A stretch of DNA of 35,872 nt from a virus (taxonomy: Duplodnaviria; Heunggongvirae; Uroviricota; Caudoviricetes). The DNA lies in the IMG/VR virus record IMGVR_UViG_3300036790_000265, positions 64,001-99,872 of that record; one strand, 5' to 3'. Every line of letters begins with the position of its first letter. Position 1 is the stretch's first letter. Below the pieces are notes generated by a model, which saw only the letters and a list, made by a program, of their open reading frames with translations, did no database searches and was not told where the DNA came from. Positions 15,921-35,114 of this stretch are shown piece after piece. Position numbers and translations under genes: made by a program.

Positions 15921-17306
15921 TTAGGCGGAGACGCTGCACCGGTAGCCGCGGCCGACAAACTTGGGCGTGCGGACCGCGAGGCAGCAGTCGCCCATGATCG
16001 CGAACGGCAGCGAGTCGGGCGAGCTGGCCGTCGGGTAAATGTCCAGCGGCCGGGCTTCCCTGACGTACGGGCGGACGATGTTGCCGGGGTCGCGGGACAT
16101 CAGGTAGATGTTCTCCTCACCCGCGCCGGGAGGCAGCATGTTCGCGTTCTGGCCGATGTAGGCGGCCGGCAGCGGGTTCGGCACCACGGAACCCACAGAC
16201 TGCTGCGGGATCAGCGCCGACCCCGTGTCGACGATCTGGTTGGTGTAGATCGGGGTCACGCCATCGGTGTTCAGGCCCACCGTCGCGTCCACGTAGCCGA
16301 GGAGCGTCTCCGAGCCTGGGGCGCCGTTCGCGGCGGTCCGCCACACCTTGTACAGCTGCGCCGACGCGCCGTCCTGGCCGGTGGGCGGGGTGAACGACAG
16401 GGTGATCGTGTTCGCGTTCCCGCCGGAACCGACCGTCTCCGACACCTCAGCGGAGGGCAGGATCTCTCCCTGCCGGGCGATGATCGGGCTGATCATGTAC
16501 CGGTAGGTGGTGGACGCGGCGATCGACCCGCCCGTCGTGGCGGTGGCCGCGGTGACCGCATCCATGCTGTAGCCGCGCGTGGACAGGAACGAGGACGCGA
16601 CGATCGGCACCCGCTTGTAGGTGGGGACGATCAGCCCGGCCGCGACCTCGACATCGTTGTACCGCTGCTGCGCCGTGAGCAGTTGCCCGATCCTCGCCTC
16701 GACGGTGGTCGAGCACACGAACATCCACGACGGGTCCGACACCGGCTCAGCGGCGTTACCCGACACCATGTCGATCAGCTCGTCGAGGGTGGCGAGGCTG
16801 AACGACCGGCCGGCGTAGTCGATGACGTTCTGGCTGCCGCCGGGGCCGAACGCGTTGATCTGGGTGTCCAGACCGTCGAACTGAGGCTGCGCACCATTCG
16901 CGGTCGAGGCGCTGTTGCCCCAGCCCATGAACGTTTCGCAGTCCCAGTAGTAGCCCTTGATCGCGCCGTTGATTTCAGTGGCACGCAGGTCTTCGATGAC
17001 CTCCTGCGTGACCTCCTGCGCGTAACCGGTGACGGAGCCCACGGCCTGGATGTGGGCCATCTGGAACTCGTTCTGGTTGTACGTGCTGGTGGACACCGGC
17101 CGGGCGCCACCGTCAGGGACGGCACCGCCCTGGACCACGACGGTCCGGGTGTTGAAGAAGTAGGTCGTGCTGTTCCACTTCTTGGTGGGGATGGACCGGC
17201 ACCAGGGCGCGAAACGCCGCTGGTACTCCACCAGAACCGGGTCGATGATCTTGGGGACGAATGGGGCTGCACCGGCAGCGGTCAGCGCCTCGCGAAGCTC
17301 AGACAT
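15921..17306 (-). CDS. Major capsid protein (SU10/DUF5309-like, 461 aa) with an internal Ig/FN3-like insertion
   Basis: GGAAGGGA RBS, ATG 17306 (MSELREAL). HK97-fold-like motifs (QFDGL, LDELIDMV, VPIVASSFL) flank a ~140-aa beta-rich insertion (TYRYMISP...ITLSFT...YKVWRT). Confidence 0.88.
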   Translation of the reverse strand: MSELREALTAAGAAPFVPKIIDPVLVEYQRRFAPWCRSIPTKKWNSTTYFFNTRTVVVQGGAVPDGGARPVSTSTYNQNEFQMAHIQAVGSVTGYAQEVTQEVIEDLRATEINGAIKGYYWDCETFMGWGNSASTANGAQPQFDGLDTQINAFGPGGSQNVIDYAGRSFSLATLDELIDMVSGNAAEPVSDPSWMFVCSTTVEARIGQLLTAQQRYNDVEVAAGLIVPTYKRVPIVASSFLSTRGYSMDAVTAATATTGGSIAASTTYRYMISPIIARQGEILPSAEVSETVGSGGNANTITLSFTPPTGQDGASAQLYKVWRTAANGAPGSETLLGYVDATVGLNTDGVTPIYTNQIVDTGSALIPQQSVGSVVPNPLPAAYIGQNANMLPPGAGEENIYLMSRDPGNIVRPYVREARPLDIYPTASSPDSLPFAIMGDCCLAVRTPKFVGRGYRCSVSA

Positions 17307-17349
17307 GAGCGTGTTCCCTTCCGGGCGGGGTCTGGGGTTTGGGCATGCG

Positions 17350-17379
17350 AAAGCCCCGGCCATGTGGGTTGGCCGGGGC
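17350..17379 (-). terminator. Hairpin with short U tail upstream of the capsid gene
   Basis: 10-bp stem GCCCCGGCCA/TGGCCGGGGC followed by TTT on the minus strand. Confidence 0.5.
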
Positions 17380-17457
17380 CTGGCGACCGTCTCCGCCGGA
17401 AGGGGCACCAGCGCGCGGGGCGCTGGCGGTCAGGTGATGCTTGCGGGGGTGTTCAGG

Positions 17458-19380
17458 TCAGCGGTGGGTGCCCTTCGGGCCGAACGCGCGGCCCGCGGCC
17501 TCCTTCAGCTCGTCGTTGGTCGCCTTGGCGAGCGCCTCCGGGGTGGCCGCCTCGACGAGCTTGTCCGCGGCTTCCTGCGCGGACAGGCCCTTGCGCTGGA
17601 CACCGCCGCCCTCGGCTGCGGCCTGGCGCAGCGGGACGAGCTTCTTCTCGAGCAGCCGGGCCACGATCTGCTCGTCGGACTCGTCCACGGCCAGCCCTTC
17701 CTTGGCGGCGGCTTCGGCGACCCGCTGGTCAACCAGGGCCGCCAGGCGCGCCTCGCGCGCTTCCCTGGTCTCGGCGACGGGTGCGGTCTCGGCAGCCGGG
17801 GCCGCGGGAGCGGCTGGGGCGGCAGCGGCCGGGGCCGCGGCAGCCGGGGCGGTCTCCGTCGCCGGAGCGCCGGTACCCGCGTTGAAGGCTTCACGCGCGG
17901 CCTTCTTCGCCAGCTTCCTCGTCTCCTTCTCCAGGAGCCGCTTGTACAGCTCCGGGTCGACGCCAGCAGGGGTGCTTTCGGCTGCCGGGGTCGTCCCGGC
18001 CGCCGGGGTGTTGGTGGCTCCGCTCACGGCGGGTACCTCCTCCTGTGTTGCGGCAGCCGGGTCGGATGCCGGGTCTGTGCTGGTCTCGGTCACGTCGGGC
18101 TCGTCGTCGTCGGCCTCGTCCGGGGTGTCGTCGTCGGGGTCGCTGTTGGGGCCGACACCGGGGACATCGACATCACCGTCCATGTCCGGATCAAGCTGGG
18201 CGAGCGCATCCCCTGCGGCCTTGCCGGCCGCGAGGAGGATGACCCGCAGGTCAGCCGGGTCCATGCAGTACGAGGAGATGTAGATGGACACGGGGCCGTT
18301 GCTGGCGCTGATGCCCCACGACCCGGACCGCCGGGCGTCCTCACCTGGGGACATCCACTCGACGACCGACTCGCCGACCTGGCGGGCGGGTTCGAACGTC
18401 CAGCCGCGGCACTCGTTGGAGACCGAGACCCCGAACTTCGTGAGCGCCTTCCGGATCCGGCCCTTGATCCGCTTGAGCTGGTCACGGCTGTAAGGCTTCG
18501 CCTTGTCGGCCTGGTGGATGTACGACCAGGCCGCTTTGGCGTTGTCCTTGGTCGAGATGTCGTACCGCTGCTTGCCGTCTTCCTGGTAGCCCGGGTCAGC
18601 CCACTGCCGGCCCGCGCCAGACAAGCCCTTGCCGCGCTTGCCCATCGGCGCTGTCGCCTCGTCGGCGTCGGCGTCCAGGTCGCCGTCTGGCCAGCAGGTG
18701 ACACACAGGCCGTCTTCGAGCACATGCGAAGGCGGGTGCAGGATGCCTTCCAGGAGAGCCCGCACGTCAGCCGGTGCGGCTTCGGTGGTTTCCTCAGTGA
18801 TCACGGTTACCTGCGCCTCCTGCACGCTCTCGGTGATGGCGACCCGCTCTGTGGTCTCGGTCTGGCCTGGCCGTTTCACCCACGCGAAGGTGTCCACCCC
18901 TGCGCCGGGCACCCCCGGCGACTTGGTGTAATCGAGCCCGGCGAGTTCGAGCCCGTCAGCGGTGACGGCCTGCTTGCCATCGGGGCCTTTGACCTCACGG
19001 ACGGTGCCCTTGAAGAAACCGCGGATCGACACGCCCTTGAGGAACGGCTGCTGGCCATCGGTGGTGTCGAGCAGGGCGGCGATCGTCCGGCCAGCGTCGG
19101 TGTCGGCCAGGTCGGCGGTGAACCTGGCCGCCCCGTCCTCGGCCACGCTCATCGACGTCAGCCGGCCGACGATCTGGGTTGAGTCGTCTTCGGCGGCGTG
19201 GTGAGTGAGCTGGGACAGTGGGTATTGCCGGTCGGTGATGTCGATTCCCGCGCCTGAGCCGATCCGTTCCTGCGCGTCTTTGACCGCCGTGGCGATCATC
19301 TCGGCGGTGTACCAGCGGCGGTTCAGGGATACGCCTGGCCGCAGCGCGACCCCGCTGACGGTTGCGATGACTCCAGCCAC
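17458..19380 (-). CDS. Prohead protease-scaffold fusion (640 aa) with an internal DUF6582-like domain
   Basis: AAGGAGG RBS, GTG start. N-terminal protease-like fold (LTHHAAEDD...IVGRL...LKGVSIRG...LDYTKSPGV), central WADPGY...KRIKGRIRKALTKFGV domain, and an Ala/Glu-rich helical scaffold at the C-terminus. Confidence 0.82.
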   Translation of the reverse strand: MAGVIATVSGVALRPGVSLNRRWYTAEMIATAVKDAQERIGSGAGIDITDRQYPLSQLTHHAAEDDSTQIVGRLTSMSVAEDGAARFTADLADTDAGRTIAALLDTTDGQQPFLKGVSIRGFFKGTVREVKGPDGKQAVTADGLELAGLDYTKSPGVPGAGVDTFAWVKRPGQTETTERVAITESVQEAQVTVITEETTEAAPADVRALLEGILHPPSHVLEDGLCVTCWPDGDLDADADEATAPMGKRGKGLSGAGRQWADPGYQEDGKQRYDISTKDNAKAAWSYIHQADKAKPYSRDQLKRIKGRIRKALTKFGVSVSNECRGWTFEPARQVGESVVEWMSPGEDARRSGSWGISASNGPVSIYISSYCMDPADLRVILLAAGKAAGDALAQLDPDMDGDVDVPGVGPNSDPDDDTPDEADDDEPDVTETSTDPASDPAAATQEEVPAVSGATNTPAAGTTPAAESTPAGVDPELYKRLLEKETRKLAKKAAREAFNAGTGAPATETAPAAAAPAAAAPAAPAAPAAETAPVAETREAREARLAALVDQRVAEAAAKEGLAVDESDEQIVARLLEKKLVPLRQAAAEGGGVQRKGLSAQEAADKLVEAATPEALAKATNDELKEAAGRAFGPKGTHR

Positions 19381-20289: not shown

Positions 20290-21777
20290 TCAGGCGACGG
20301 CTTTGAGGAACATGGAGAACGCGCTGAACGGGAGCGCCTTCATCGCTGCGGCGACAGCGCAGCGGCACAGCGGGTGAGCAGGCACAATCGGCTCAGCACC
20401 AGGCGCCAGGTCATGGGGGTTGTCTTCCTGCGCCTGCTCACAGAACGGGCACACCCGCCCGTCACCAGCGGTCATCACGTCGTACGCTTCGACACCTTCG
20501 GAGGCGTAAAGGGCGAGCGCGCCGGCGTTCGCCGACCCGGACATGGCGTAGTCGATCAGCGTTGTCACGGCGCGGATACTGTCGCCGCTGGTCAGCGCCT
20601 CGACAGCCGAGACCATCTCGTCGTAGGTGCCGCCGTTCGCTGCGAGCGAAGCCAGCGTGCGGCCAATGTCGGCGGCGTTGCCGGCGATCAGCGCCTCAAC
20701 CCACGGGTCGGCCATGCCGGGCAGGTCTTCCAGGTGGGTGAGGGGTTCGTACATGTGCGCGAACGCGGTGTCCCAGTCGAACCCTGTATGTCCCGCCTCG
20801 GCGGCAGCGACCGCGAGCGCACCGGTTTTCCCTTCGGCGGTGGCCGCGGCGATCGCGACCTCGATCGCGAGGGTCAGCTGTTCGTGTTCGGGGCTGTACC
20901 GGATCGCGGCCAGCATCCCGGCCGCGAGCATTTTCGCCTGGGCGCGGACCTCATCGGTCCAGGCGTCTTCGGTGAGCATGCCGGTGAGGCGGCGGAACGA
21001 CTTGACCATGCGGGGGACGCTGATGTGTTTCACCGCGGCCCGCCACGCGGTTTCGACCTTGGCGACGTGCTCACGGATCAGGTCGTCGCGGCGCTGATGC
21101 ACGCTGGCCCAGGTGCCGTCGATGTGGCCGACCTCGAGCAGTGCCTCCAGGACCCGCGGGTCATCGGAGTGTTCGAGCGCAGCGGTTACCGCCGTGGTGC
21201 ACCGCTGGTCGAGTTGGGGTGTGGCGGGCCCGCCGGATAGGGCGTAGCCGGTGAGGTATGCCTCGGCTGCGTCGTCGGCCAGGCCGCCGGTGAGCTCGTA
21301 GTCGCTGCGGTCGGTGCCGTGCACCGCGGAGATGCGGTCGAACACGAAGGTGATCGGGGCGATCCGCTGCACGGGGCTGGCTGTGTCTCGGTACAGGTAG
21401 ATCAGGGAGATGTGGGCGAGGTAGCCGTGTTCGGACGCCACGTGCAGGCCGTGTTCGGCGAGGGCGGCTTCGGCGTCGCGGCGGAGTTGGTCCAGGTCGG
21501 GTGAATCGACGAGGGCTACCACGATGTCGGCGTCTTCGCTGCCGGTAAGGCGGGCGTGGCCGGCGATCGTGGCGGTGATGGGCCCGCGGTCGGCCAGGGC
21601 CTCGGCGACGGCGTTGAGTGCGCTGATGTCGACGTGGTCGGCTTTGCCGGTGTAGGCGAGGGTGAGGTGCAGGTCGGCGGGGTTGAGGCCGTCGTCGATG
21701 GCGAGTGCCTTGGCCAGGGCGGGGGGCGGGTAGAGGGCGATCATGCTGTGCCCGCTGTGTTCTGGCTGGGCGCTCAT
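20290..21777 (-). CDS. 2H phosphoesterase (2'-5' RNA ligase/Acb1-like) fused to a MuF (Mu gpF/SPP1 gp7-like) minor head protein (495 aa)
   Basis: Two 2H motifs, DLHLTLAY and LAHISLIY, ~85 aa apart in the N-terminal 165 aa; C-terminal MuF Cys/His motif DGRVCPFC...PAHPLCRC. Confidence 0.8.
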   Translation of the reverse strand: MSAQPEHSGHSMIALYPPPALAKALAIDDGLNPADLHLTLAYTGKADHVDISALNAVAEALADRGPITATIAGHARLTGSEDADIVVALVDSPDLDQLRRDAEAALAEHGLHVASEHGYLAHISLIYLYRDTASPVQRIAPITFVFDRISAVHGTDRSDYELTGGLADDAAEAYLTGYALSGGPATPQLDQRCTTAVTAALEHSDDPRVLEALLEVGHIDGTWASVHQRRDDLIREHVAKVETAWRAAVKHISVPRMVKSFRRLTGMLTEDAWTDEVRAQAKMLAAGMLAAIRYSPEHEQLTLAIEVAIAAATAEGKTGALAVAAAEAGHTGFDWDTAFAHMYEPLTHLEDLPGMADPWVEALIAGNAADIGRTLASLAANGGTYDEMVSAVEALTSGDSIRAVTTLIDYAMSGSANAGALALYASEGVEAYDVMTAGDGRVCPFCEQAQEDNPHDLAPGAEPIVPAHPLCRCAVAAAMKALPFSAFSMFLKAVA

Positions 21778-21811
21778 GTCACCGCCTGGCCGTAGGTCCC
21801 GAATTGCCCGA

Positions 21812-21873
21812 GGTGTATATACGAAAACCTTGCGAGGTGTAAGTACACCCGAGTATGATGGTGTCTATACACC
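21812..21873. promoter_or_regulatory. Three 14-bp palindromic operator-like sites at exact 24-bp spacing
   Basis: GGTGTATATACGAA (21812), GGTGTAAGTACACC (21836), GGTGTCTATACACC (21860); consensus GGTGTA-NN-TACACC. Confidence 0.75.
21830..21859 (+). promoter_or_regulatory. Housekeeping-sigma-type promoter for the plus-strand cassette
   Basis: TTGCGA (21830-35), 18-nt spacer, TATGAT (21854-59) in an AT-rich island; AAGGAG RBS and ATG 21893 follow. Confidence 0.7.
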
Positions 21874-21892
21874 AGACAAGGAGCCGAAAGAC

Positions 21893-22147
21893 ATGGCCAT
21901 CGACCAGCCCCTCGCAGACCTCGACGAGCAGACCGCTTTCGACGGCATCACCACATGGTTCGCCGAAGCCCCCCGAGGCTCATTTGCGTGGGTGATCACC
22001 TGGTTCCCCACTACCGGCAACATCGCCGCATGGCAGGCCGGCACCAAGGGCCGCACAGGCTACCGGGCAACCGCAGCGGACCTCGGCACCGCACGTGCCG
22101 AAGCCCAGCGGATCGCGGACCTGATCGCAGCCGGAAAGAAGGCGTGA
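21893..22147 (+). CDS. Hypothetical protein (84 aa), first gene of the inverted cassette
   Basis: AAGGAG RBS, ATG 21893 (MAIDQPLADL...). Confidence 0.75.
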   Translation: MAIDQPLADLDEQTAFDGITTWFAEAPRGSFAWVITWFPTTGNIAAWQAGTKGRTGYRATAADLGTARAEAQRIADLIAAGKKA

Positions 22148-22665
22148 CGATGACCATCGCAGAAACCCTGATCACCACCGCACTCCAGCTCCGCTGCGTC
22201 TGGTGCGCCACCACACAGCCCGCCGCGGCAATGCAGCCGGTCAACGCGACCAGCACAGCGTCCCAGTGCCGCGACAGCGAAGCCTGCTACGAACGGTCCG
22301 CCGCCGCCATGGGCAACCTCGGCCACGACCAGGCCGCCCGGTGGCTGCCCGCGCCGTCCGCGACCGCGTACGCGATGCGGCTGCTGGACACGACCCAAGA
22401 CGCTGACGTTGCGGTGATCCCGATGGTGATGCCCGGTAAGGTCCCCGGCCGGTGGGCAACCGACCAGGAAGTCGAGACGGTGGCTGGGGCGGTGTTCCTG
22501 GCCACCGACCCCGACTCACCGGGATCGTGCCTGCTGCCAGGATTTGAGACGGCTCGCGATCTGGCGCTTGCGCTGGCCCGTGCGGCGCTCGGTGAGCGGC
22601 CCGGGATGATCGGGTGGGCGACGGTGGAGCGAGACGGGACGGTCAGTGCAACCGAGGAAGCATGA
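22144..22665 (+). CDS. Hypothetical protein (173 aa) with an N-terminal CxxC...Cx5C motif
   Basis: GTGA coupling to the upstream gene; RCVWC...QCRDSEAC. Confidence 0.7.
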   Translation: MTMTIAETLITTALQLRCVWCATTQPAAAMQPVNATSTASQCRDSEACYERSAAAMGNLGHDQAARWLPAPSATAYAMRLLDTTQDADVAVIPMVMPGKVPGRWATDQEVETVAGAVFLATDPDSPGSCLLPGFETARDLALALARAALGERPGMIGWATVERDGTVSATEEA

Positions 22666-22901
22666 TCGGACAGCCAGCCTTGACGCTGGCCGGCCGAAGC
22701 CCCGCAGGACCGAGGAAGGAAACGAGTAGCGATGGCAGGACGCGCATATCGGTCTCGACACCGATCGGGCCGTTCCGGGCCCGGATCAGTGCTCCGCTGA
22801 ACGGCCGGGGCAACGTGTGGGGATCGCTCGGAACGTGGATCGGCCGGGACTGGGTCAGCATCGGTCGGCCACTGACCCAGCGGGGACGGCGGTCCCGATG
22901 A
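22662..22901 (+). CDS. Small basic hypothetical protein (79 aa)
   Basis: ATGA overlaps at both ends. Confidence 0.6.
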   Translation: MIGQPALTLAGRSPAGPRKETSSDGRTRISVSTPIGPFRARISAPLNGRGNVWGSLGTWIGRDWVSIGRPLTQRGRRSR

Positions 22902-23137
22902 ACGCATACCGGGCCGTGGCCGGGCTGTGGGACACGATCAAGTGGGCGATCGCCCGCCGGACAGGCCTGTACCGGCTCGACGTCGCCGCGATGCGGCGGT
23001 CCGCGCGCCGGCTGGAAGAGGTCGCCACGCTCGCCCGTAGCGTCGGCCTCGACGATCGGGCGGCCGAAGCAGCTGCGTCAGCCGCTGGGCGCCGGGCGAC
23101 CGCTACAGCCATGATTCAGGCCGCGCGTCAACCGTGA
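22898..23137 (+). CDS. Small Ala/Arg-rich helical hypothetical protein (79 aa)
   Basis: ATGA overlap with the upstream gene. Confidence 0.6.
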   Translation: MNAYRAVAGLWDTIKWAIARRTGLYRLDVAAMRRSARRLEEVATLARSVGLDDRAAEAAASAAGRRATATAMIQAARQP

Positions 23138-23162
23138 CCGCTGTCCAGGCGTCTAAGGATGC

Positions 23163-23429
23163 GTGAAGAGACTCGCCGCAGCATTAGTCGTTCTCGCCGC
23201 CGCCGTTGCCCTGTCCGGGTGCGGTGGCGGTGGTCATCTCACCGCGACCCAGCAGTGCACCGCCGACTATCAGGTGCTTGTCACAGACGGCCTGTACGGT
23301 GATTCACCAGCTGAGGTCCGGGCGGATGGCACTTCCGCGCAGGTGCAGGCGTACGACACCGCGATGCGGGTGTGTGATTCGCTTACTCCTGCTCAGGCGA
23401 AACAGGCCGCCCTGGCTGTGCATCCGTAG
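23163..23429 (+). CDS. Small lipoprotein (88 aa)
   Basis: AAGGA RBS, GTG start; basic N-terminus, hydrophobic stretch and lipobox LSG-C; two further Cys. Confidence 0.75.
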   Translation: MKRLAAALVVLAAAVALSGCGGGGHLTATQQCTADYQVLVTDGLYGDSPAEVRADGTSAQVQAYDTAMRVCDSLTPAQAKQAALAVHP

Positions 23430-23437
23430 GTTTGCAG

Positions 23438-23508
23438 CTCCCCGCCGTGGATTCGAATCACGACAACCGGCACCAGAAACCGGGGCCCTGCCGTTAGGTG
23501 AACGGGGG
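23438..23508 (-). tRNA. tRNA-Gln(CTG)-like gene, probably degenerate
   Basis: Cloverleaf: acceptor CCCCCGT/GCGGGGA, D-loop TAACGGCA, anticodon stem CCGGT/GCCGG with loop TT-CTG-GT, T-loop TTCGAAT. Mismatches at 1:72, 10:25 and 53:61; no encoded CCA. Confidence 0.7.
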
Positions 23509-23513
23509 ATCGG

Positions 23514-23603
23514 CAGAGAGGCGCACCCGGTGGCTGGCACGGCTCGGCTTCACCGACCGGACGCAGGTCAAAGCCGTAGAAGGCCCTGCTGTGCGCCTCT
23601 CTG
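23514..23603 (-). ncRNA. Candidate structured RNA (three-way junction with possible kissing loops)
   Basis: Perfect 13-bp closing stem CAGAGAGGCGCAC/GTGCGCCTCTCTG, two internal 5-bp stems and complementary loop hexamers; non-coding gap 5 nt upstream of the tRNA. Strand is inferred from the neighbours. Confidence 0.45.
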
Positions 23604-23607
23604 GCTA

Positions 23608-23724
23608 TTACGAGACGTCCCGCTCAGGCTCGGACGTCTTGTCGTCGGGGTGGGTGCAAGCGCAGTCGACGACCTCACAGCCGTCACAATCACCGGCCAG
23701 GCAAGCCCGGCAGAACCAGATCAC
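23608..23724 (-). CDS. Tiny Cys-rich peptide (38 aa)
   Basis: GTG overlapping the upstream stop (GTGA); IWFCRACLAGDCDGCEVVDCACTHP. Confidence 0.5.
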   Translation of the reverse strand: MIWFCRACLAGDCDGCEVVDCACTHPDDKTSEPERDVS

Positions 23725-24221
23725 AGGTCGCCTTCCACGTGCGGCGGCTCGCGCTGGTCGAGCTCGTAATCGACGCCGGACTTGATCGTGATCCTGGACA
23801 TCGGACTGATCGGTCGTTCCGTGCTGGTGCCGTCGCTGAACTCGACCCGCAGCACAGTCCGGACCGGCACCCTCGGGCCAATCCGGCGAAGCTGCCGGCC
23901 GAACGCGGCGGCGAACACGCCGAGGAGGGCGAGGCCACCGACCACGAGAGCGCCGTTGAACGCGTCGTTGGCTGCTGCGACCGTGGCCTGCCAATGGGAG
24001 CGGCCCCATGGCGTCCAGGCGACGGCCACACTGGCCGCGACCATGGCCCAGGCGATGGCGACGGACAGCCACAGCGCCCTCGGCAGCGGTGTCGTCTCGC
24101 GGGGTGGCCGCTCGGCGAACAGCCAGTGCAGCGCGCCATGCAGGTGGCGGCGGTCGAACTCGGCCAGGTTCGCCGCGGCCCACGCGCAGGTGTGAACGAT
24201 GGCGAGGGTTCGGCGGTTCAT
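23721..24221 (-). CDS. Membrane protein, ~2 TM helices (166 aa)
   Basis: TGATG coupling to the upstream gene; hydrophobic segments LWLSVAIAWAMVAASVAVAW and ALVVGGLALLGVFAAAF. Confidence 0.65.
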   Translation of the reverse strand: MNRRTLAIVHTCAWAAANLAEFDRRHLHGALHWLFAERPPRETTPLPRALWLSVAIAWAMVAASVAVAWTPWGRSHWQATVAAANDAFNGALVVGGLALLGVFAAAFGRQLRRIGPRVPVRTVLRVEFSDGTSTERPISPMSRITIKSGVDYELDQREPPHVEGDL

Positions 24222-24745
24222 CAGGCGGGCTTAGCCACGACCACAGGCTTATCGGCCAGGCGGATTTCCTCGGGGAGATGACTGCCATAGTCCGGCTGCA
24301 AAGTTCTCGTGACCACATACCTGTGCTCGGTACCGTCCGCGAACTTGAAGTCCACCTGGCAGGCCATCCCGTCAAGCGACCCGCGATGGATGCGGATTTG
24401 CCTAGCGGTGGTCGGCTGCTCGGCCTCTGCGGACTTCCGCTCGATGCTGAGCACGTCGCTGGCCTTGACCGCTGTCACCATCACGTGGTCCTGGTCTACG
24501 AAAACCGTGAAGCCGGGCAGATCATCGTCGGTGGTCCAGCCGTTGGCGGTGAACTCCTGCGGCGAACGGCCCGGGTCGATGAATGTGACGCGGTAGTGGT
24601 GGCTCTTGGACGGCATGTGGGCGTTCATGGTTCCCTCGGTCGGGGTGGCGTCTTCACAGGGCCAGTAGCAGCCGCCAGCGGCAAGCGGCCTGGGGGTCAA
24701 GCTCTCGACCATCACGTCAGCGAGCGTCCGATACCGCACGTTCAC
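24221..24745 (-). CDS. Hypothetical protein (alternative start ATG 24628)
   Basis: GTGA-coupled start at 24745, or GAGGGA RBS with ATG 24628; two small beta domains. Confidence 0.65.
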   Translation of the reverse strand: MNVRYRTLADVMVESLTPRPLAAGGCYWPCEDATPTEGTMNAHMPSKSHHYRVTFIDPGRSPQEFTANGWTTDDDLPGFTVFVDQDHVMVTAVKASDVLSIERKSAEAEQPTTARQIRIHRGSLDGMACQVDFKFADGTEHRYVVTRTLQPDYGSHLPEEIRLADKPVVVAKPA

Positions 24746-25329
24746 ACCGCTTCGGTGCTCAGGCCGGTACGCTTCACCAGGGCCGACGTGGGTTCGAAGA
24801 CGACACCAGAGCCGGCCGGTCCTCCTGTGGCAATACCCACGCCCAGTTTCAGGCAGCGGACGTTACCCAGGGCACACCCTGAGTCATCCGTGACCGCGTA
24901 GTAGTGCTTCGACCCGTCCGCCAAGTCGATCTGCACCTCACAGAGGCGTCCACCCCCGGGGGCGGACGACAGCGCTATCGCTGTCGCGGGTGTCGCGGGT
25001 GTCGCGGAGGGCTCGGCAGGCTGCTCGGCTGCGGTCTTGAGCAGTTCGAGGCATGGATTGCCGTGAACCTCTTCGCCAGGATTGATCACGTACAGCTCGT
25101 CCGCTGGCGGTGTCCAGCCCATCGCGATCAGCGCCTCGCGAGTCTCCTCAACGACACCCATCTTCGGGTCGGTCAGCGTGATGACCGCGCCGTCCCAGAC
25201 AGGGAGTTTCACGGTCAGCAGCGGGAGCGTGTCCTCGCCTTGGTGCACGCTGACCTCGTTGTAGGGCAGCAGATGCCCGTCGATGGTGAGCTTCCCGTTG
25301 TACGGCTGACTGGACAGTTCAACGCGCAT
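24742..25329 (-). CDS. Hypothetical phage protein (195 aa)
   Basis: Closely packed ORF; REALIAMGWTPP motif; the PAT-PAT linker is encoded by a 9-bp tandem repeat at 24982-25007. Confidence 0.7.
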   Translation of the reverse strand: MRVELSSQPYNGKLTIDGHLLPYNEVSVHQGEDTLPLLTVKLPVWDGAVITLTDPKMGVVEETREALIAMGWTPPADELYVINPGEEVHGNPCLELLKTAAEQPAEPSATPATPATAIALSSAPGGGRLCEVQIDLADGSKHYYAVTDDSGCALGNVRCLKLGVGIATGGPAGSGVVFEPTSALVKRTGLSTEAV

Positions 25330-25332
25330 GGG

Positions 25333-25461
25333 TTAGCCGATCTCCTTCGGGACGAACGGTGCGGCCTTGGCCGCGGTGAGGTCAGGGACAGGCGGGTTCG
25401 GCGCGGGCTGCGTGTCGGGCAGCTCGTACGGCTCCTCGCCTTCCGGATCGGGCTCAGTCAC
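25333..25461 (-). CDS. Small Pro/Glu-rich peptide (42 aa)
   Basis: GTG 25461 overlapping the upstream stop; begins MTEPDP like two neighbouring genes. Confidence 0.45.
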   Translation of the reverse strand: MTEPDPEGEEPYELPDTQPAPNPPVPDLTAAKAAPFVPKEIG

Positions 25462-25889
25462 GGGTACCTCCAGCCGCCAGGGGTCTTCCGCCACCCGCGG
25501 CGACGTTTCCGCCAGTCCTCGAATGGGCGTCGCAGACGGCGAGCGATCCGTTCCGGCAGCGGCCACGGCTGACGGCCGCCTTTGTCGCCGTACATGACCC
25601 GGCTCGCGGCCGATTCGATAGGCCACGCCGGGTCACCGGTCGCGCTGGTGGGCTTGTTCCCGCCCCAGCGGCGGTGATCCGCTGGCGAACCAGCCGGGCG
25701 GGCTGCGTCGGCCGGGCACGGGAGCTGGCCGAAGTACGGCGGGTGGCCGGTGAAGGCGATACCCATGCGACGGCGGGCAGCCTGCTTGTCCGGGTACAGG
25801 TCGCAGAACTCGCACTCGCCGGGGCCGTGGAGCACCCGCTCGTCACAGTGCGGGAAGGGGGCGCGTGGACGAGGATCGGGCTCGGTCAT
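25458..25889 (-). CDS. Hypothetical Cys/His-containing protein (143 aa)
   Basis: ATGA coupling; HCDERVLH...CEFC...H...PCP...WGGN. Confidence 0.7.
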   Translation of the reverse strand: MTEPDPRPRAPFPHCDERVLHGPGECEFCDLYPDKQAARRRMGIAFTGHPPYFGQLPCPADAARPAGSPADHRRWGGNKPTSATGDPAWPIESAASRVMYGDKGGRQPWPLPERIARRLRRPFEDWRKRRRGWRKTPGGWRYP

Positions 25890-26353
25890 CGCGGTGGCCA
25901 GTGCCAGCCGTAACGGCGGCAGACGGTCGTGAGCGCATGAACGACAGCGCGCTCGATCTCGGCGTGGCTGATGCTGTGGTGGACGTGGGAATGCGTGTCT
26001 GGCGGGGGTGATATCCCGGCCGGTGGCAGCCCCATGGCGGCACGGAGTTCATTGAATGTCGGGTAGTTGCACGCCGGAGGCCGCTCGTCGGCCGCCGCGA
26101 CCAGCCAGTCATCGGCCAGCAGGTCCGTGCCGGTGGCTGACCAGGGTGCACAAGACCCGTCCGCGGTCCGCAGGTCGATGTGCGGCAGGTATCTGATCTC
26201 TGTGCCCTCGGGGTAGATGCCGAGCAGCGGCGGCCGGTTGACCTCGAACGTGCTGCCGGGCACGAGGTACAGGAACTGGCCCTTGCCGTTCCAGCCGGCC
26301 CGGGTGACGCGCTTGCCGTCCTTCAGGGCTGCCAGTGCCTGGCCGAAGTCCAT
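25886..26353 (-). CDS. DUF2829 / Tad2-like (Thoeris anti-defence 2) protein with C-terminal extension (155 aa)
   Basis: TGATG-coupled ATG 26353. MDFGQALAALKDGKRVTRAGWNGKGQFLYL...IDLRTADG...PWSATGTDLLADDW matches the DUF2829 signature. Confidence 0.8.
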   Translation of the reverse strand: MDFGQALAALKDGKRVTRAGWNGKGQFLYLVPGSTFEVNRPPLLGIYPEGTEIRYLPHIDLRTADGSCAPWSATGTDLLADDWLVAAADERPPACNYPTFNELRAAMGLPPAGISPPPDTHSHVHHSISHAEIERAVVHALTTVCRRYGWHWPPR

Positions 26354-26595
26354 CAGTCGTCGTCCTCGCTGTCGTCGGGGGTGAACGGGGTGTAGGTGCG
26401 GGTCCGGGCGACCCACTCGCCAGCGGCTGGGAGCACGTAGCCGTGGCGGGTCTCGACGATGCCGTGGCGCAACCTCACCTTCAGGCCGGCCCGGGCGCAG
26501 GCGTTGAGCGCGTCGGCCACGCGAGCCAGCGCGTCGGCCGCTGCCGTCGCGGACGTGGCGACCTGGCGCATCGTGTCGGCGGTCAGCTCAGCCAC
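26353..26595 (-). CDS. Hypothetical protein (80 aa)
   Basis: Coupled at both ends to its neighbours. Confidence 0.65.
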   Translation of the reverse strand: MAELTADTMRQVATSATAAADALARVADALNACARAGLKVRLRHGIVETRHGYVLPAAGEWVARTRTYTPFTPDDSEDDD

Positions 26596-26824
26596 GCTGG
26601 ATGACCAGCTCGTCAGCTCTCACCACGACAACATGGGCGGCGGGGGCGTGTGACTGCACCATCAGGCGCATGTTCTCCCGGTCCTGCGGGGTGAAGTTCC
26701 GGTCTGGGCTGATCCGGATAATCAGGGTGTCGCCTGGGCGGAGGACCCTCGTCTCTTCTGCCAGCAGTTCGCTGAGCGGCCGCGGTCCGGTTTCCACGAT
26801 GGTCAGCGGGTCGGGCTCGGTCAT
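26588..26824 (-). CDS. Hypothetical protein (78 aa)
   Basis: ATG 26824 overlaps the portal stop (ATGA); begins MTEPDP; LRPGDTLIIRI motif. Confidence 0.65.
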   Translation of the reverse strand: MTEPDPLTIVETGPRPLSELLAEETRVLRPGDTLIIRISPDRNFTPQDRENMRLMVQSHAPAAHVVVVRADELVIQRG

Positions 26825-28800
26825 GCTGCTGTCCGATCTTGGTAGTCGTGCAGGTTGTCCCAGTCGCCCGCCTTGGCCTTGGCCACGCCCGTGTACGCCC
26901 ACACCGGCAGCTCTTCCTTCATCGCTGCGAGGGCGTGGTGGTGGCCGTCCACGATCACGTACTTCGCGGACCCGGCCGGGCGCACCAGCACCACGGGCTT
27001 CAGATGCAGGCCCTCAGCAGCGCGCTTCTTGGCCTTCTTGCGCAGCCGCGCAATGTCCGGCCCGTCGTGGTCAGCGGCCCAGTCTTCGAGGTGGTCGGTG
27101 TCGATCTCGTCCGCATCGACCTCCGCGGGCCCGTGCCATTCCACCGTGTCGGCATCCTTGACCCACCCGAGTTTGCTGGCGGGGAAGCATCCTGCGAGGC
27201 GGCGGTACACAAGCTGGGTGACCGAGACAACCTCCAGAAGCGGGCTGCCGTGGAGGCGTTCGTTGAGACGGCGCCGGTAGTTGGCCAGTTGCACGACACG
27301 CACGCTCTCCCGCGAGCCCTTCTTCCCGGCCAGCTGCTTGCCCTTCCCCGCGGGCAGGGCAGGCGGTGCGGGTGCTCCTGGCTTCTGCTGAGGCAGATCG
27401 TCGTCATCGTCGTCTTGCATCGGCTCGTCACCGGGAGGCTGCTCACCGGCGGCGACCGCGGGTGCGCCCTTGGACGCGATCATCGCCTTCGACATGTCTG
27501 ACATGTCCGACCAGAGCACGAGGTTCTGCCGGTCCACCAGCACCGCATCATCGCCGCCAGGAACCGGAGGCTCACCGATGCTGGCGCGGTACTTGTTGAG
27601 CGTCCAGGAGCCGTTCCGCAGCCTCGTGTCGCGGATTTCCTCCACGGTCTTGGAATCGCGGTAGTCGACCTCGCCGAACTTCGACTTCCAGCCCTTGACG
27701 CCGAACCCTTCGACAGCGATGTGGAAGTTCAGCTTCTCCAGGAGGATCGCGCCGATCGGGTCACACGTGTTGATCATGAACGAGCGGTGCTGGCTATCAC
27801 CAGTACCGCCGCCCAGGTTGCCCGACTCGATGATGTTCGCCTCAGCCGGCGGGACACCGTACCCGGCGACGATCGTGTCCCGTTCCTTGTCTTTCGCCTC
27901 CAGCACGTCAGACAACTTCCCGGCTTGCAACTCGGTCAGCTTCCCACCGCCGACCGTGATCCACGGGTTGCCGATGTTGCGGGCGCCCAGGTTCTGCGCC
28001 ATCACCTTGTCCCGCCACCTGGTCCGCTCCGCGGACGGCGGCAGGTCAGCATGGATCGTCGGGGGCAAGCCCTTCCGCAGCATCTCCTTCTCGGTGGCCG
28101 CGGCGAACAGCCAGGACGTGATCGGCTGCATCATCGCCTGCGTCGGCGACACCCCGTACACGCCCGGCCGGGCGGAGTCCAGCGAGATGTGGATGACTTC
28201 GCGGGTTTCGAACGTCGCGCGCTGCCCGAACTCGGTCACCTGCACATAGCCGGTGATTTTCCCGTGCTCGTCCGCTACTGGTGTGGTGGTCACCACGTCG
28301 AGGTTCCACAACGCGACTGGTGTCGGCCCAGACCAGGTGACCTCAAGCAGCGCGTCGCCGAAGACGAGCAGGTCCGCGATCGCGTTCCGCAGCACCTGGC
28401 GGATGTCTTGGGTGGGGTTGCAGAACCCGTAGAACCGTTCCAAGGCGATGACCTCGGCCGGCTTGTCGGGTTCCTCCTCACCTTCGCCGCTGTCCGCATC
28501 CCAGTCGGAGATCAGGCCACCCGCGGTGATGGTGCGGGCGATCACCTGCACGCACGTCCACGACCACGGGCACGTCAGGTAGGCGTCGTTCAGTTCCTGC
28601 ATCAACGTCTGCCGGTCAGTGCCGGTCGAGGCGCCGATAGCGGACTGGTACTCGTTCAGGCCGCCCTGCGGGACACCTGGAACATACCCGGCGCGTTCGA
28701 GATCGGCGGCGCTGGTCGCGACCTGGGCGGCGACCCGGTCCTTTTTCTTCTCGGTGACGCCGCGGCGGAACGCGGGCGGGATCCAGCCTGGGAGCGGCAA
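26821..28800 (-). CDS. Portal protein with a C-terminal ParB/sulfiredoxin-like domain (659 aa)
   Basis: GGAGG RBS, TTG start, directly after TerL. Portal motifs (DLLVFGDA, GVSP, IVAGYGVPP, TLNKYRASIGEPP) are followed by a linker and KPVVLV...YVIVDGHHHALAA. Confidence 0.85.
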   Translation of the reverse strand: MPLPGWIPPAFRRGVTEKKKDRVAAQVATSAADLERAGYVPGVPQGGLNEYQSAIGASTGTDRQTLMQELNDAYLTCPWSWTCVQVIARTITAGGLISDWDADSGEGEEEPDKPAEVIALERFYGFCNPTQDIRQVLRNAIADLLVFGDALLEVTWSGPTPVALWNLDVVTTTPVADEHGKITGYVQVTEFGQRATFETREVIHISLDSARPGVYGVSPTQAMMQPITSWLFAAATEKEMLRKGLPPTIHADLPPSAERTRWRDKVMAQNLGARNIGNPWITVGGGKLTELQAGKLSDVLEAKDKERDTIVAGYGVPPAEANIIESGNLGGGTGDSQHRSFMINTCDPIGAILLEKLNFHIAVEGFGVKGWKSKFGEVDYRDSKTVEEIRDTRLRNGSWTLNKYRASIGEPPVPGGDDAVLVDRQNLVLWSDMSDMSKAMIASKGAPAVAAGEQPPGDEPMQDDDDDDLPQQKPGAPAPPALPAGKGKQLAGKKGSRESVRVVQLANYRRRLNERLHGSPLLEVVSVTQLVYRRLAGCFPASKLGWVKDADTVEWHGPAEVDADEIDTDHLEDWAADHDGPDIARLRKKAKKRAAEGLHLKPVVLVRPAGSAKYVIVDGHHHALAAMKEELPVWAYTGVAKAKAGDWDNLHDYQDRTAA

Positions 28801-28820: not shown

Positions 28821-30518
28821 TCAGGTGAAGGGAGACTTCGCGACCGTCCCGGGTGGTGGCCGGTCGTCGTCGTCGTCATCAGGGGGCCGGTTCCAGGGGG
28901 CGCCCGGCTCGTCGGGCCGGACCGCGTACTGGCCCCTCGGCTGCAACAGATTCTCGGAGCCCTCCGCGGGCACGTCGTCGTCGACGGGGAACTGGGGGCC
29001 GCCACCAAGGTTGATCAGCAAGTACCGGGAGCCGTCCATCGCGTGGTCAGCGGCGTTGGTGTCGGCGTCCTCAACGTTGCCGGTCTTCGCGTGCGGCAAC
29101 GCGGGAAGCTCCATGATCAGGCTCTTGACGGTCCGGAAGATGTGGACCATCGGGCACGTTTCCCACCCGAGCGCGCGGTGGTGCGGGCACGCAGGCCCTT
29201 CCTTCAGGTAGGAGTGCCACCGCTGCCAGCCCGCGACCCGGGAACCGGGGCCTTTCCCCGCTTCGGTCAGATAGACGCCGTTCTCGGCGTACACCTCGGA
29301 GATCGGTTTCGCGTCACCGCGGGTGGCCCACATGGCGTCGTCAGCCCACCGGACCAGCACCCGCTCGTCATCGGCCTCAGCCGCGAGTATCCGCTTGGCC
29401 TGGTCAGCTTCACCGACCTGCGTTTCGTACAGGTCGCGGTAGAACCACACCCGGCCGTCCTCGTCGACCGCGGCCCACACCACCGCCCACGGCTTCGCGA
29501 ACCCCCAGTCGATGCCCTGGTAGCGACGCCACCCGGCAGGCAACGTGATCGGGTCGAGGGTGTGACGGTCATACCGGTACTCGGTGAACATCTGGCCCGC
29601 GAACTGATCCCAGTCACCGTCGCGCATCGCTGCCCGGCGGGCCGGGTCGGGGATCGCGTCGAGCTGCCGGAAGTAACCGGCGTTCAGGTGAGGGTTATCG
29701 GTGGCCTTCGCCGGGATGAACCGGCGGGTCAGCCCGAAATCGTCGGTGACCACCTGCGCGCCGTAGACGGTGGGCTTGATGTACCGCTCTTTAACCTCAC
29801 CGTGGCCAGGGCCACCCGGGTTCGACGACGACCGGATACCCAGCACGGGAACACCATGCGCGGCCCGGAGCCGTTCCAACGCGATCACGTCCACGATCCC
29901 CGGCGCCAGCAACGTCCGCTCGTCCACCAGGAGCAGCTGATACTCGCCGCCTTGCCGGCGGGACGCGTCGTCAAACGACTCCATGTACCGGAGCCGGATC
30001 ACCGACCCGTTAGGAAACGTGACCTCTTTATCGGTCTTGTTCCAATGGCCGCCGACCTTGGCACCCCACTGGTACCGCTGAAACTCCGGGTAGATCGACT
30101 CCGCGAGCTCGTCATACGAGCGGCGCAGCATCAGCACCCGGATCCCGGGATACCGGACCGCCGCCCGGATCGCCTCCATGACCAGGCCGACTGTTTTCCC
30201 GCCACCGGCCGCGCCGCCGTACAGCACGTCGTACTCGGTCGCAGCGTGGAACAGCTCCTGCGGGCAGTTCCCGCACGGCGCCGGTAGCCTGCCGGCCGCG
30301 GCCTCGGTCACCCGCTCGTCGAACGGGGACTCGACCCCGATCTCCGCGGCTACCTGCTTACGGACCGCGACCCGCGGGAGGCACGTCGGCTCATACCCCA
30401 GCTCGGCGAAGACGTCGATCTTGGCGAGGCGTTCCGCCTCGCGGCGTTCATGTTCCTGGTGGAGGCGCTGGAGGTAGCGCAAGCGGTCCAGTTTCAGATC
30501 CGCCAGGGAGCCGGCCAA
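28821..30518 (-). CDS. terL: Terminase large subunit (565 aa)
   Basis: Walker A GGAAGGGKT, Walker B LLLVDE, SSNPGG coupling motif, nuclease GIDWG and DHAMDGSRY. Confidence 0.95.
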   Translation of the reverse strand: MAGSLADLKLDRLRYLQRLHQEHERREAERLAKIDVFAELGYEPTCLPRVAVRKQVAAEIGVESPFDERVTEAAAGRLPAPCGNCPQELFHAATEYDVLYGGAAGGGKTVGLVMEAIRAAVRYPGIRVLMLRRSYDELAESIYPEFQRYQWGAKVGGHWNKTDKEVTFPNGSVIRLRYMESFDDASRRQGGEYQLLLVDERTLLAPGIVDVIALERLRAAHGVPVLGIRSSSNPGGPGHGEVKERYIKPTVYGAQVVTDDFGLTRRFIPAKATDNPHLNAGYFRQLDAIPDPARRAAMRDGDWDQFAGQMFTEYRYDRHTLDPITLPAGWRRYQGIDWGFAKPWAVVWAAVDEDGRVWFYRDLYETQVGEADQAKRILAAEADDERVLVRWADDAMWATRGDAKPISEVYAENGVYLTEAGKGPGSRVAGWQRWHSYLKEGPACPHHRALGWETCPMVHIFRTVKSLIMELPALPHAKTGNVEDADTNAADHAMDGSRYLLINLGGGPQFPVDDDVPAEGSENLLQPRGQYAVRPDEPGAPWNRPPDDDDDDRPPPGTVAKSPFT

Positions 30519-30978
30519 TCTGGGCCTCCATCTGCGCTATGGCGGCCTCGATCCAGCCCAGGGTGATGACCTCATGCTTGGTGGGGGCGTCCAGGCCGTG
30601 GAGTTTCGCCCGCCGCTCCGACACCCGCAGCAACGCGAGCACAGCCTGGATCACCGGCCCGTCATCAAGAAGCGGCTCCTCCGTCTCCGGGTGCAGCACC
30701 ACAATCCCTGACGACGACACGCAGTAGTGCTTCCTGCCCAGCACTTCCTGCAACCTCTGCATCAGGTCGTCCAGCCGCGCATCCTCAAGCTGCCGCAACT
30801 CCTCAACAGCCTCACGAGCGCTATCGGCCAGGGCCCGCTGCACCGCCTCATACGCCGACGACGACGACCGCCACGACATCGCGGCAGCGATCTGCTCGTA
30901 CGACTTCCCCTCACGCCGCAGCTTGAGAGCCTCGATATCCCGTTCCCGGGTGGCGACAGACCGGCGACGACCAGCCAA
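30448..30978 (-). CDS. terS: Terminase small subunit (176 aa)
   Basis: N-terminal HTH (LRREGKSYEQIAAAM), RRAKLHGLDAP motif, directly upstream of and overlapping terL. Confidence 0.8.
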   Translation of the reverse strand: MAGRRRSVATRERDIEALKLRREGKSYEQIAAAMSWRSSSSAYEAVQRALADSAREAVEELRQLEDARLDDLMQRLQEVLGRKHYCVSSSGIVVLHPETEEPLLDDGPVIQAVLALLRVSERRAKLHGLDAPTKHEVITLGWIEAAIAQMEAQIGRLPGGSETGPLALPPAPPPGT

Positions 30979-35057: not shown

Positions 35058-35114
35058 GGGATCCTTTCCCATACATTGGTGGGTTGCGGGGACCTATCAG
35101 CGGGGGGTCAGAGA

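Follow-up and report, generated by a model that had tools for sequence, protein, structure and literature searches.

Fusions of effector domains, 2H phosphoesterases among them, to the MuF and portal proteins of phages have been described by Iyer et al. (2017, PMC5512222), who proposed that such 2H domains are packaged and injected to act against nucleotide signals, and who also raised an Usb1-like RNase role for the head-fused 2H domain. The same proposal was made explicitly for SMODS, cyclic-mononucleotide and CRISPR signalling by Iyer et al. (2022, PMC9503650), together with fusions of NUDIX and ADP-ribosyltransferase domains to MuF, portal and capsid protease. Experimentally, a virion ejection protein of a Vibrio phage has been shown to inhibit the effector of a cyclic oligonucleotide-based antiphage signalling system (CBASS) (Chen et al. 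2025 preprint). Tad2 proteins are sponges for the Thoeris messenger glycocyclic ADP-ribose (gcADPR) and for some cyclic dinucleotides (Yirmiya et al. 2023 preprint, 10.1101/2023.05.01.538930; Li et al. 2023 preprint, 10.1101/2023.11.15.567273). In this study, we report the analysis of a 35,872-nucleotide stretch of virus DNA (referred to here as the window), which forms the final 35.9 kb of the 99,872-bp IMG/VR record IMGVR_UViG_3300036790_000265, estimated to be 83% complete, and in particular of the head-gene interval at 20290-28800, which runs from a portal gene to a MuF gene. The window has a G+C content of 64-73%, and its source is a large, high-GC actinomycete siphophage of about 100 kb or more.

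An initial annotation had proposed that four elements of this 8.5-kb interval act together as a kit against nucleotide-signal immunity: a portal fused to a ParB/Srx domain, a Tad2-like gene, a tRNA-like gene with an adjacent structured RNA, and a 2H-MuF fusion. All four were found to be present, as judged by Pfam, fold matches, ARAGORN and folding z-scores, and head proteins do carry accessory enzyme domains within the same polypeptide, in fusions that are conserved in the lineage. The arrangement that we consider likely is nevertheless one of two layers, in which portal-vertex proteins carry cargo domains and a mosaic hotspot of accessory genes lies between them, and not a co-inherited kit. 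The central idea of that annotation is already in print (Iyer et al. 2017, 2022) and amounts to the rediscovery of a computational prediction.

Portal and MuF proteins with added domains

The late genes form a continuous minus-strand module, picked out by third-codon-position GC (GC3), in the order small terminase, large terminase, portal, island, MuF, protease/scaffold, major capsid protein and tape measure. In the direction of transcription, the interval runs from the portal fusion, at its high-coordinate end, to the 2H-MuF fusion, at its low-coordinate end. The portal gene (26821-28800, minus strand; 659 aa), the start of which is kept in the related locus L005, encodes an N-terminal part with the core portal domain (aa 1-406; 27583..28800, minus strand), matched by Pfam Phage_portal PF04860 over aa 81-406 (expect value (E) 1.7e-22) and by phrog_12 (E 2.7e-36). 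An acidic, proline-rich linker joins this core to a separate C-terminal domain (aa 515-659; 26824..27258, minus strand). The linker (aa 455-514; 27259-27440, minus strand) contains a run of six Asp residues and a Pro/Ala/Gly/Lys-rich stretch whose length differs between relatives, and might serve as a flexible tether or as a protease site.

The C-terminal domain was modelled with AlphaFold from a 7-sequence alignment (predicted local distance difference test (pLDDT) score 85.5), and the top Foldseek matches of the model were all proteins of the ParB/Srx fold, namely PadC, 1vk1, sulfiredoxin, Noc, KorB, SerK, SbnI and ParB. When the chains retrieved by Foldseek were aligned with VIA-align, 52 scored Z>=5 and all listed entries were ParB/Srx members; the ParB/Srx set aligned to the domain at Z 7-8.3 over 88-97 residues, the best matches being Noc 7ol9 (Z 8.3, 95 residues, root-mean-square deviation 3.0) and Srx 6ky4 (Z 8.3). 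A Z near 8 is by itself middling, and it is because the list of matches is uniform that the modelled domain is assigned the ParB/Srx alpha+beta fold. Sequence models remained below cut-off (ParBc_2 E 0.007, SerK E 6e-4). The domain is kept in 7 related loci. The nearest branches of the superfamily are ParBc_2/SerK/SbnI (PF08857; PDB 1vk1, 5x0b) and the CTP-binding N-domains of ParB, Noc and KorB. Like these, the domain has a conserved box, DGHH[R/H], where the superfamily has its nucleotide-binding GxxR motif; unlike them, it is attached to a portal, has neither a helix-turn-helix nor a dimerisation domain, and in the window phage carries His in place of the Arg. The window portal reads DGHHH where the wider family has DGHHR, a change shared with three close relatives, whereas Arg is kept in L003, L006 and L007.

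The family of this domain is revealed neither by tblastn against cultured phages, which gave no match with the domain, nor by a word-indexed search, which gave one relative; it is seen only by exhaustive profile search, in which 731 representative clusters were matched, 597 of them at E<=1e-10. The proteins are 109-2401 aa long and the domain may occupy any position in them. Pfam scans were performed on 10 + 57 + 5 of these proteins. Among the 57, portal family matches were found in 19, MuF in four and Mu-type prohead protease in three, with NUDIX (eight), ADP-ribosyltransferase (five), 2H (two) and zeta toxin (one) as companion domains. The DGHH box is invariant in the family, and Arg comes next to it in at least 90% of the 57 members. 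None of the Pfam ParB models scored above cut-off on the domain, and no ddrB-ParBD match was obtained in the 57 members. In contrast to the DdrB-like ParB domains of polyvalent proteins, no similarity to the prototype, P1 DdrB, was detectable (hhalign probability 0.1%), although a shallow 7-sequence profile against a single sequence is a weak test. No description of the domain was found in the literature searched. As no Pfam model fits it above cut-off, it may represent an undescribed family, although the test behind this is weak.

A good comparative argument that the four domains would act at one place, the portal vertex inside the capsid, comes from a 1288-aa protein of a metagenomic phage (P0051, locus L013), in which portal, 2H, ParB-like and MuF domains are joined in one open reading frame (ORF) directly after the terminase gene. 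Identity to the corresponding window domains is 49% for its 2H domain and 39% for its ParB-like domain. The single reading frame argues for a common working place and does not show what the domains do. A further family member, P0040, combines this ParB-like domain with DUF6582 and a Mu-type prohead protease in one protein; DUF6582 is also carried by the protease/scaffold gene of the window. Portal, MuF and protease are thus three different head-internal proteins to which the ParB-like domain can be attached. A 1855-aa portal-MuF protein (P0042) has two ParB-like matches and, at aa 532-607 ahead of the portal match, a LAGLIDADG match that could be an intein inside the portal fusion.

The second fusion protein, 2H-phosphoesterase::MuF (20290-21777, minus strand; 495 aa), is followed by two small conserved genes. 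Its N-terminal domain (aa 1-165; 21283..21777, minus strand) is matched by PF13563 over aa 28-149 (E 1.9e-8; 34.9 bits against a cut-off of 27), and both 2H motifs are present, HLT at aa 37-39 and HIS at aa 122-124; by sequence, the domain is a member of the 2H superfamily with intact active-site motifs. The remainder (aa 166-495; 20290..21282, minus strand) is probably of the MuF/SPP1 gp7 type and ends in C-x2-C...H-x2-C-R-C. TIGR01641 (SPP1 gp7) aligns to aa 375-477 (E 3e-5) over model positions 5-107 of 109, at 24.3 bits against a cut-off of 39.65, and PF04233 scores 17 bits against 29.6. PHROG head-morphogenesis families match at E 3e-7 (phrog_4728) and 1e-6, PF04233 is carried by the homologues P0019 and P0026, and two homologues are named SPP1 gp7 family by JGI. 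The fusion occurs in about 30 protein clusters. The first HxT motif is invariant in the fused homologues and the second His is kept in 24/25, with Ala at the Ser/Thr position of the second motif in several. MuF-only relatives are 43-63% identical to the window protein, which suggests that the 2H domain has been added or lost within the MuF family.

The 2H domain had been grouped with Acb1 enzymes, a label that is not specifically supported: the Acb1 model PF23474 gave no match at E<=0.01 in the window protein, and only matches that were weak or below cut-off in the relatives P0018 and P0051. The structure model (pLDDT 92.4) matched 45 PDB 2H chains at E<=0.001. The best Foldseek matches were of the LigT/ThpR type (drCPDase 5h7e, E 5e-9, then 1iuh and 5ldm), followed by Acb1-type structures (9q2g, E 1.6e-5; 7t27, 1.5e-4) and then by Usb1 and viral 2'-5' phosphodiesterases. 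Profile searches ranked the relatives likewise, with marginal scores (1iuh and PH0099 best; 9q2g, E 0.005), and TIGR02258 matched at E 4.8e-8 with 33.1 bits, below its equivalog cut-off of 65.7. With LigT/ThpR motif spacing, a domain of about 170 aa and its best structure and profile matches in that group, the domain resembles LigT/ThpR (TIGR02258; 5h7e, 1iuh, 5ldm), from which it differs in an identity of only 17-20%, in its place in a phage head operon and in its fusion to MuF. With Acb1 (phage T4/FBB1; PF23474; PDB 7t26-7t28, 9q2g) it shares the phage-encoded 2H fold and two H-x-T/S motifs; Acb1, however, stands free at about 150 aa, whereas the window domain forms part of a structural protein and is closer to LigT/ThpR in sequence and structure. 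The gap between the two groups is small (E 5e-9 against 1.6e-5, with TM scores of 0.5-0.7 for both). The modelled fold alone thus does not settle the substrate, the LigT/ThpR type being only slightly ahead of Acb1. Nucleotide messengers are a possible substrate, at somewhat short of even chances; RNA ends we would name more tentatively, and the remainder falls to other substrates or to no activity.

The nearest viral structural relatives of the 2H domain are actinophage proteins (TM up to 0.88). Gordonia phage Hanem and Brevibacterium phage Cantare have a gene of the 2H clade, annotated 'RNA ligase', one ORF after the portal, in Hanem followed by a VIP2-like ADP-ribosyltransferase gene; in other actinophages the 2H domain is embedded in proteins of 880-1100 aa annotated 'structural' or 'capsid morphogenesis'. 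Because of these genes and embedded copies, a 2H domain in the head module is regarded as a common actinophage feature. In the related locus L012 (9001-11217), a 738-aa 2H-MuF homologue (P0023) is extended at its C-terminus by about 240 aa, over which only a faint PI3/PI4-kinase match is seen, and its gene comes after a short portal without the ParB-like domain. A literature search for Acb1 together with MuF returned only unrelated papers. The window fits the polyvalent and MuF-fusion proteins of Iyer et al. in having 2H on MuF in a terminase-portal late context and a ParB/Srx domain on a head protein, and in that relatives join the same domains with NUDIX and ADP-ribosyltransferase; unlike those proteins, the 2H domain is here N-terminal to MuF and there are two domains per protein, not many.

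The interval between portal and MuF in related loci

Eleven related loci were obtained by exact-protein look-ups through homologues of the 2H-MuF fusion protein and one Rosetta-stone protein, and were compared with the window by tblastn, profile HMMs, ARAGORN and ORF clustering. A profile-based locus search gave one viral locus and none in species-representative genomes, and the 8.5-kb interval had no megablast match among 50,697 phage records. Terminase, portal, a variable island, (2H)MuF, DUF6582 protease and capsid follow in this order in the window and 10 related loci. Across the 12 loci, window included, the 2H domain is present on MuF in every locus but L007, which has an unfused MuF (52% identical over aa 154-495), and the ParB-like domain is present on the portals of the window, L003-L007 and L011, whereas L008 and L012 have short portals without it. 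The two fusions are therefore separable and occur without each other, as L007, L008 and L012 demonstrate. The tRNA-Gln(CUG) gene was found in 2/12 loci, the window and L002, its closest relative at the locus, and Tad2 in the window only (1/12), being absent from all 11 related loci. The initial annotation had expected its elements to recur together in relatives; for Tad2 and the tRNA they do not, and the fusions, although conserved, come apart, so that the four elements do not stand as one system.

In length the island ranges from about 0.1 kb in L012, where it is a single small ORF, to 5 kb in the window. ORF clustering gave a few families common to 3-6 loci and mostly singletons; 8/14 island ORFs of the window have no relative, Tad2 included (4/10 outside a reverse-strand cassette and 4/4 within it). 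From this comparison of sequences, the portal-to-MuF interval is a mosaic hotspot of accessory genes. Given this variability, it is reasonable to regard the small ORFs of the interval as candidates for accessory or anti-defence genes, as had been suggested.

The Tad2-family (DUF2829) gene (25886..26353, minus strand; 155 aa) is matched by PF11195 with 85.3 bits against a cut-off of 25. As in known Tad2 proteins (PDB 8sme, 8v3e, 9eib), an 85-aa domain can be aligned end to end, and the solved structures 9eib and 8v3e align over its whole length (E 6e-21). Unlike them, the protein is not a stand-alone sponge of about 90 aa: the 85-aa domain is followed by a unique 70-aa C-terminal tail, and the gene is seated in a late head operon, coupled to the portal gene. 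The 4109 homologues, nearly all of 87-90 aa and up to 82% identical, cover only about 55% of the query, and the tail, which keeps the codon bias of coding sequence, is not covered by any of the best 120. Translation probably starts at the ATG at 26353, where start codon and preceding stop codon overlap, and not at the GTG at 26416. As had been claimed, this is a gene of the late operon, with overlapping stop and start codons back to the portal; because of this translational coupling, Tad2 is likely to be produced late and in large amounts. Yirmiya et al. argue that a sponge has to build up before its signal appears, and Thoeris and CBASS are both said there to fire late in infection; late placement is therefore mildly unusual for the build-up that a sponge needs, yet not in conflict with defences that fire late. 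The target is uncertain, because DUF2829 also includes AcrIIA7.

The coupling extends through most of the island. ATGA, GTGA and TGATG overlaps link the portal, 78-aa, 80-aa, Tad2, 143-aa and 42-aa genes, and after a 3-nt gap four more ORFs follow. The 78-aa ORF (26588..26824, minus strand), with a start ATG overlapping the portal stop as ATGA, has no family in Pfam, PHROGs, NCBIfam or PADLOC and a weak match in L010 as its sole relative, while the 80-aa ORF (26353..26595, minus strand; GC3 0.93) has tblastn matches in L004, L005 and L011. Beyond Tad2 lies a Cys/His-containing 143-aa ORF of this phage only (25458..25889, minus strand), for which no family and no relative were found and the Atlas model was poor, with no usable match. 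The next ORF, of about 42 aa (25333..25461, minus strand; GTGA overlap with the preceding stop), is the most conserved gene of the island by tblastn and clustering (6 loci). Two tandem genes of 195 and 174 aa (24221..25329, minus strand), with a GTGA overlap between them, are paralogues by BLASTP clustering, and their single-copy relatives in L002, L003 and L007 point to a tandem duplication within the hotspot. The chain ends with a 166-aa ORF common to 6 loci and a coupled 38-aa Cys-rich ORF (together 23608..24221, minus strand). The latter (23608-23724, minus strand; GTGA overlap) contains seven Cys. A reading frame at the corresponding position of L002 matches its first 28 residues at 57% identity; the ORF could encode a small zinc-binding protein. 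NCBIfam and PADLOC searches of ten island ORFs gave nothing but weak signal-peptide-type matches for a lipoprotein gene.

A tRNA-Gln(CUG) gene was called by ARAGORN at 23437..23508 (minus strand). Its Rfam score of 26.1 bits falls short of the gathering score (29), and the gene is somewhat degenerate, with a C1.A72 mismatch and a G53 to A change, while the orthologue at the same place in L002 is canonical (U1-A72, G73). Between the window's tRNA gene and the last island ORF lies a stable stem-loop RNA with a 13-bp stem (23514..23603, minus strand; minimum free energy -51.2 kcal/mol, z -3.6). The hairpin is not conserved, L002, the one relative with the tRNA, having unrelated sequence there (fold z -0.9), and an Rfam search of 21700-24000 gave the sub-threshold tRNA only. 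A second ARAGORN call, an 82-nt tRNA-Gln(UUG) elsewhere in the genome (C1:60877-60958), has several mismatched stems and is probably false.

The interval had been described as composed of late genes throughout. This probably holds for the coupled island genes, whereas 21893-23429 is a cassette on the reverse strand: about four small genes (21893..23429, plus strand) with weaker coding signal and no relatives. A sigma-70-like site lies just upstream, at 21830-21859, a single site against 0.5 expected by chance. The last gene of the cassette (23163-23429, plus strand) encodes a lipoprotein signal with a lipobox (LSGC) and weak signal-peptide matches. Relatives have two to four unrelated small reverse-strand genes at this position, which looks like a moron slot, and the lipoprotein gene could be a moron expressed by the lysogen, for example a superinfection-exclusion lipoprotein.

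The upstream boundary of the head operon is marked by the large terminase subunit (28821..30518, minus strand; Terminase_3 E 1.3e-7, phrog_979 E 4e-31), which is preceded by a likely small terminase gene (30448-30978, minus strand). After MuF come the DUF6582 protease/scaffold (17458-19380, minus strand), an SU10-type major capsid protein (15921-17408, minus strand) and, among the tail genes, the tape measure (6886-10230, minus strand). About 2.8 kb upstream of the small terminase gene, a 433-aa RCC1-repeat protein (33771-35072, minus strand; PF00415 E 3.5e-39) is an unusual phage cargo.

Competing explanations

In the two-layer arrangement that we favour, the portal C-terminal ParB/Srx domain and the MuF N-terminal 2H domain would be head-internal cargo of the polyvalent-protein kind; in known portals the C-terminus faces the capsid interior. 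Made late and built into the capsid at the portal vertex, the cargo domains would, if ejected, already be in the next host at DNA entry, ahead of phage gene expression. There the 2H domain would most likely cut either nucleotide second messengers or the 2',3'-cyclic-phosphate or 2'-5' RNA ends left by host defence nucleases, two roles that sequence cannot tell apart. The second layer would be a recombination hotspot holding a few semi-conserved ORFs, many unique ones, the reverse cassette and, in this phage only, Tad2, so that the four elements would share an insertion-tolerant place and probably a broad counter-defence theme. Several points weigh against this arrangement. Packaging and ejection are deduced solely from the fusion partners, and a domain covalently tethered to the portal might stay in the capsid for good if it is not cut off, no cleavage site having been identified. 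Because the conserved Arg of the superfamily is His in the window portal, its ParB-like domain may be non-catalytic. With the reverse-strand cassette interposed ahead of the MuF gene, transcription of MuF is probably separate from that of the portal and the island. Finally, the sample is small, and its 12 loci (the window and 11 others) were picked through 2H-MuF homologues, which biases it towards fusion-bearing loci.

That the four elements are instead coordinated against nucleotide-signal immunity (CBASS, Thoeris, Pycsar, type III CRISPR), with the head module timing or attaching the counter-defence, appears very unlikely. Tad2-family membership is solid, the catalytic motifs of 2H are intact, Tad2 and 2H lie in or beside the late operon, 2H and the ParB-like domain are fused with portal and MuF in P0051, and a signal-degrading role has been predicted for the head-fused 2H (Iyer et al.). 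Against this stand the distribution of Tad2 (1/12 loci) and the tRNA (2/12), the independent occurrence of the fusions in a mosaic island, the lack of an Acb1 Pfam match in a 2H domain structurally nearer LigT/ThpR, and a tRNA with no bearing on nucleotide signalling. In addition, we know of no ParB/Srx protein acting on immune signals, which also counts against coordination of this kind. A broader possibility is that the interval is a dedicated late counter-defence hotspot, in which the head-tethered DGHHR domain would be a new nucleotide-handling effector working with 2H and, in relatives, NUDIX and ADP-ribosyltransferase on immune nucleotides or NAD-derived signals at DNA entry, and the unique ORFs would include new anti-defence proteins; this we hold to be unlikely.

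Two further explanations concern what the added domains do. The 2H domain might be an RNA-end enzyme delivered with the DNA, which opens 2',3'-cyclic phosphates or trims RNA and, with the tRNA-Gln, serves against RNA- or tRNA-targeting defences. We regard this as a tentative possibility, since RNA 2',3'-cyclic phosphodiesterases (TIGR02258, 1iuh, PH0099, 5h7e, LigT) are the closest matches in sequence and structure, a tRNA gene lies within the island, and an Usb1-like RNase role was raised by Iyer et al. (2017, PMC5512222); the same authors, however, never found the head-fused 2H clade associated with RNA ligases, and the small difference between the LigT and Acb1 matches leaves the fold indecisive. 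Ligases of the RtcB type, moreover, are known to join 3'-phosphate or 2',3'-cyclic-phosphate ends directly, so that a cyclic phosphodiesterase with a 2'-phosphate product would not supply them with substrate. Rather unlikely, in our assessment, is that the add-on domains serve the virion itself, the ParB/Srx domains (12 copies in the capsid) and MuF holding or organising the end of the packaged DNA and 2H being a structural or regulatory relic. Such a role would suit the replacement of the catalytic-site Arg by His in this sub-lineage and the covalent attachment of the domain to structural proteins in most architectures found; it is also textbook knowledge that ParB N-domains are nucleotide-gated DNA clamps and that SPP1 gp7 (MuF) binds portal and DNA. 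The catalytic histidines of 2H are nevertheless clearly conserved, and the companions of the ParB-like domain, namely NUDIX, ADP-ribosyltransferase, zeta-toxin and 2H domains, are effectors of a kind typically directed at the host. Moreover, L008 and L012 are without the ParB-like domain and L007 is without 2H, and because these close relatives do without them, neither add-on domain is needed for assembly.

Relevance for actinophage biology

No finding of this study overturns current ideas. The window is a clean example, from an uncultured actinomycete phage, of the published prediction that enzymes sit on portal-vertex proteins so that counter-defence would arrive with the DNA. A useful find is the widespread ParB/Srx-like domain, carried mostly on portals, MuF proteins and prohead proteases. 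Accessory or anti-defence genes of actinophages may be sought in the variable slot between portal and MuF, and the small, well-conserved 2H-MuF family, with its natural unfused controls, is a good system for studying the substrates of head-delivered 2H domains.

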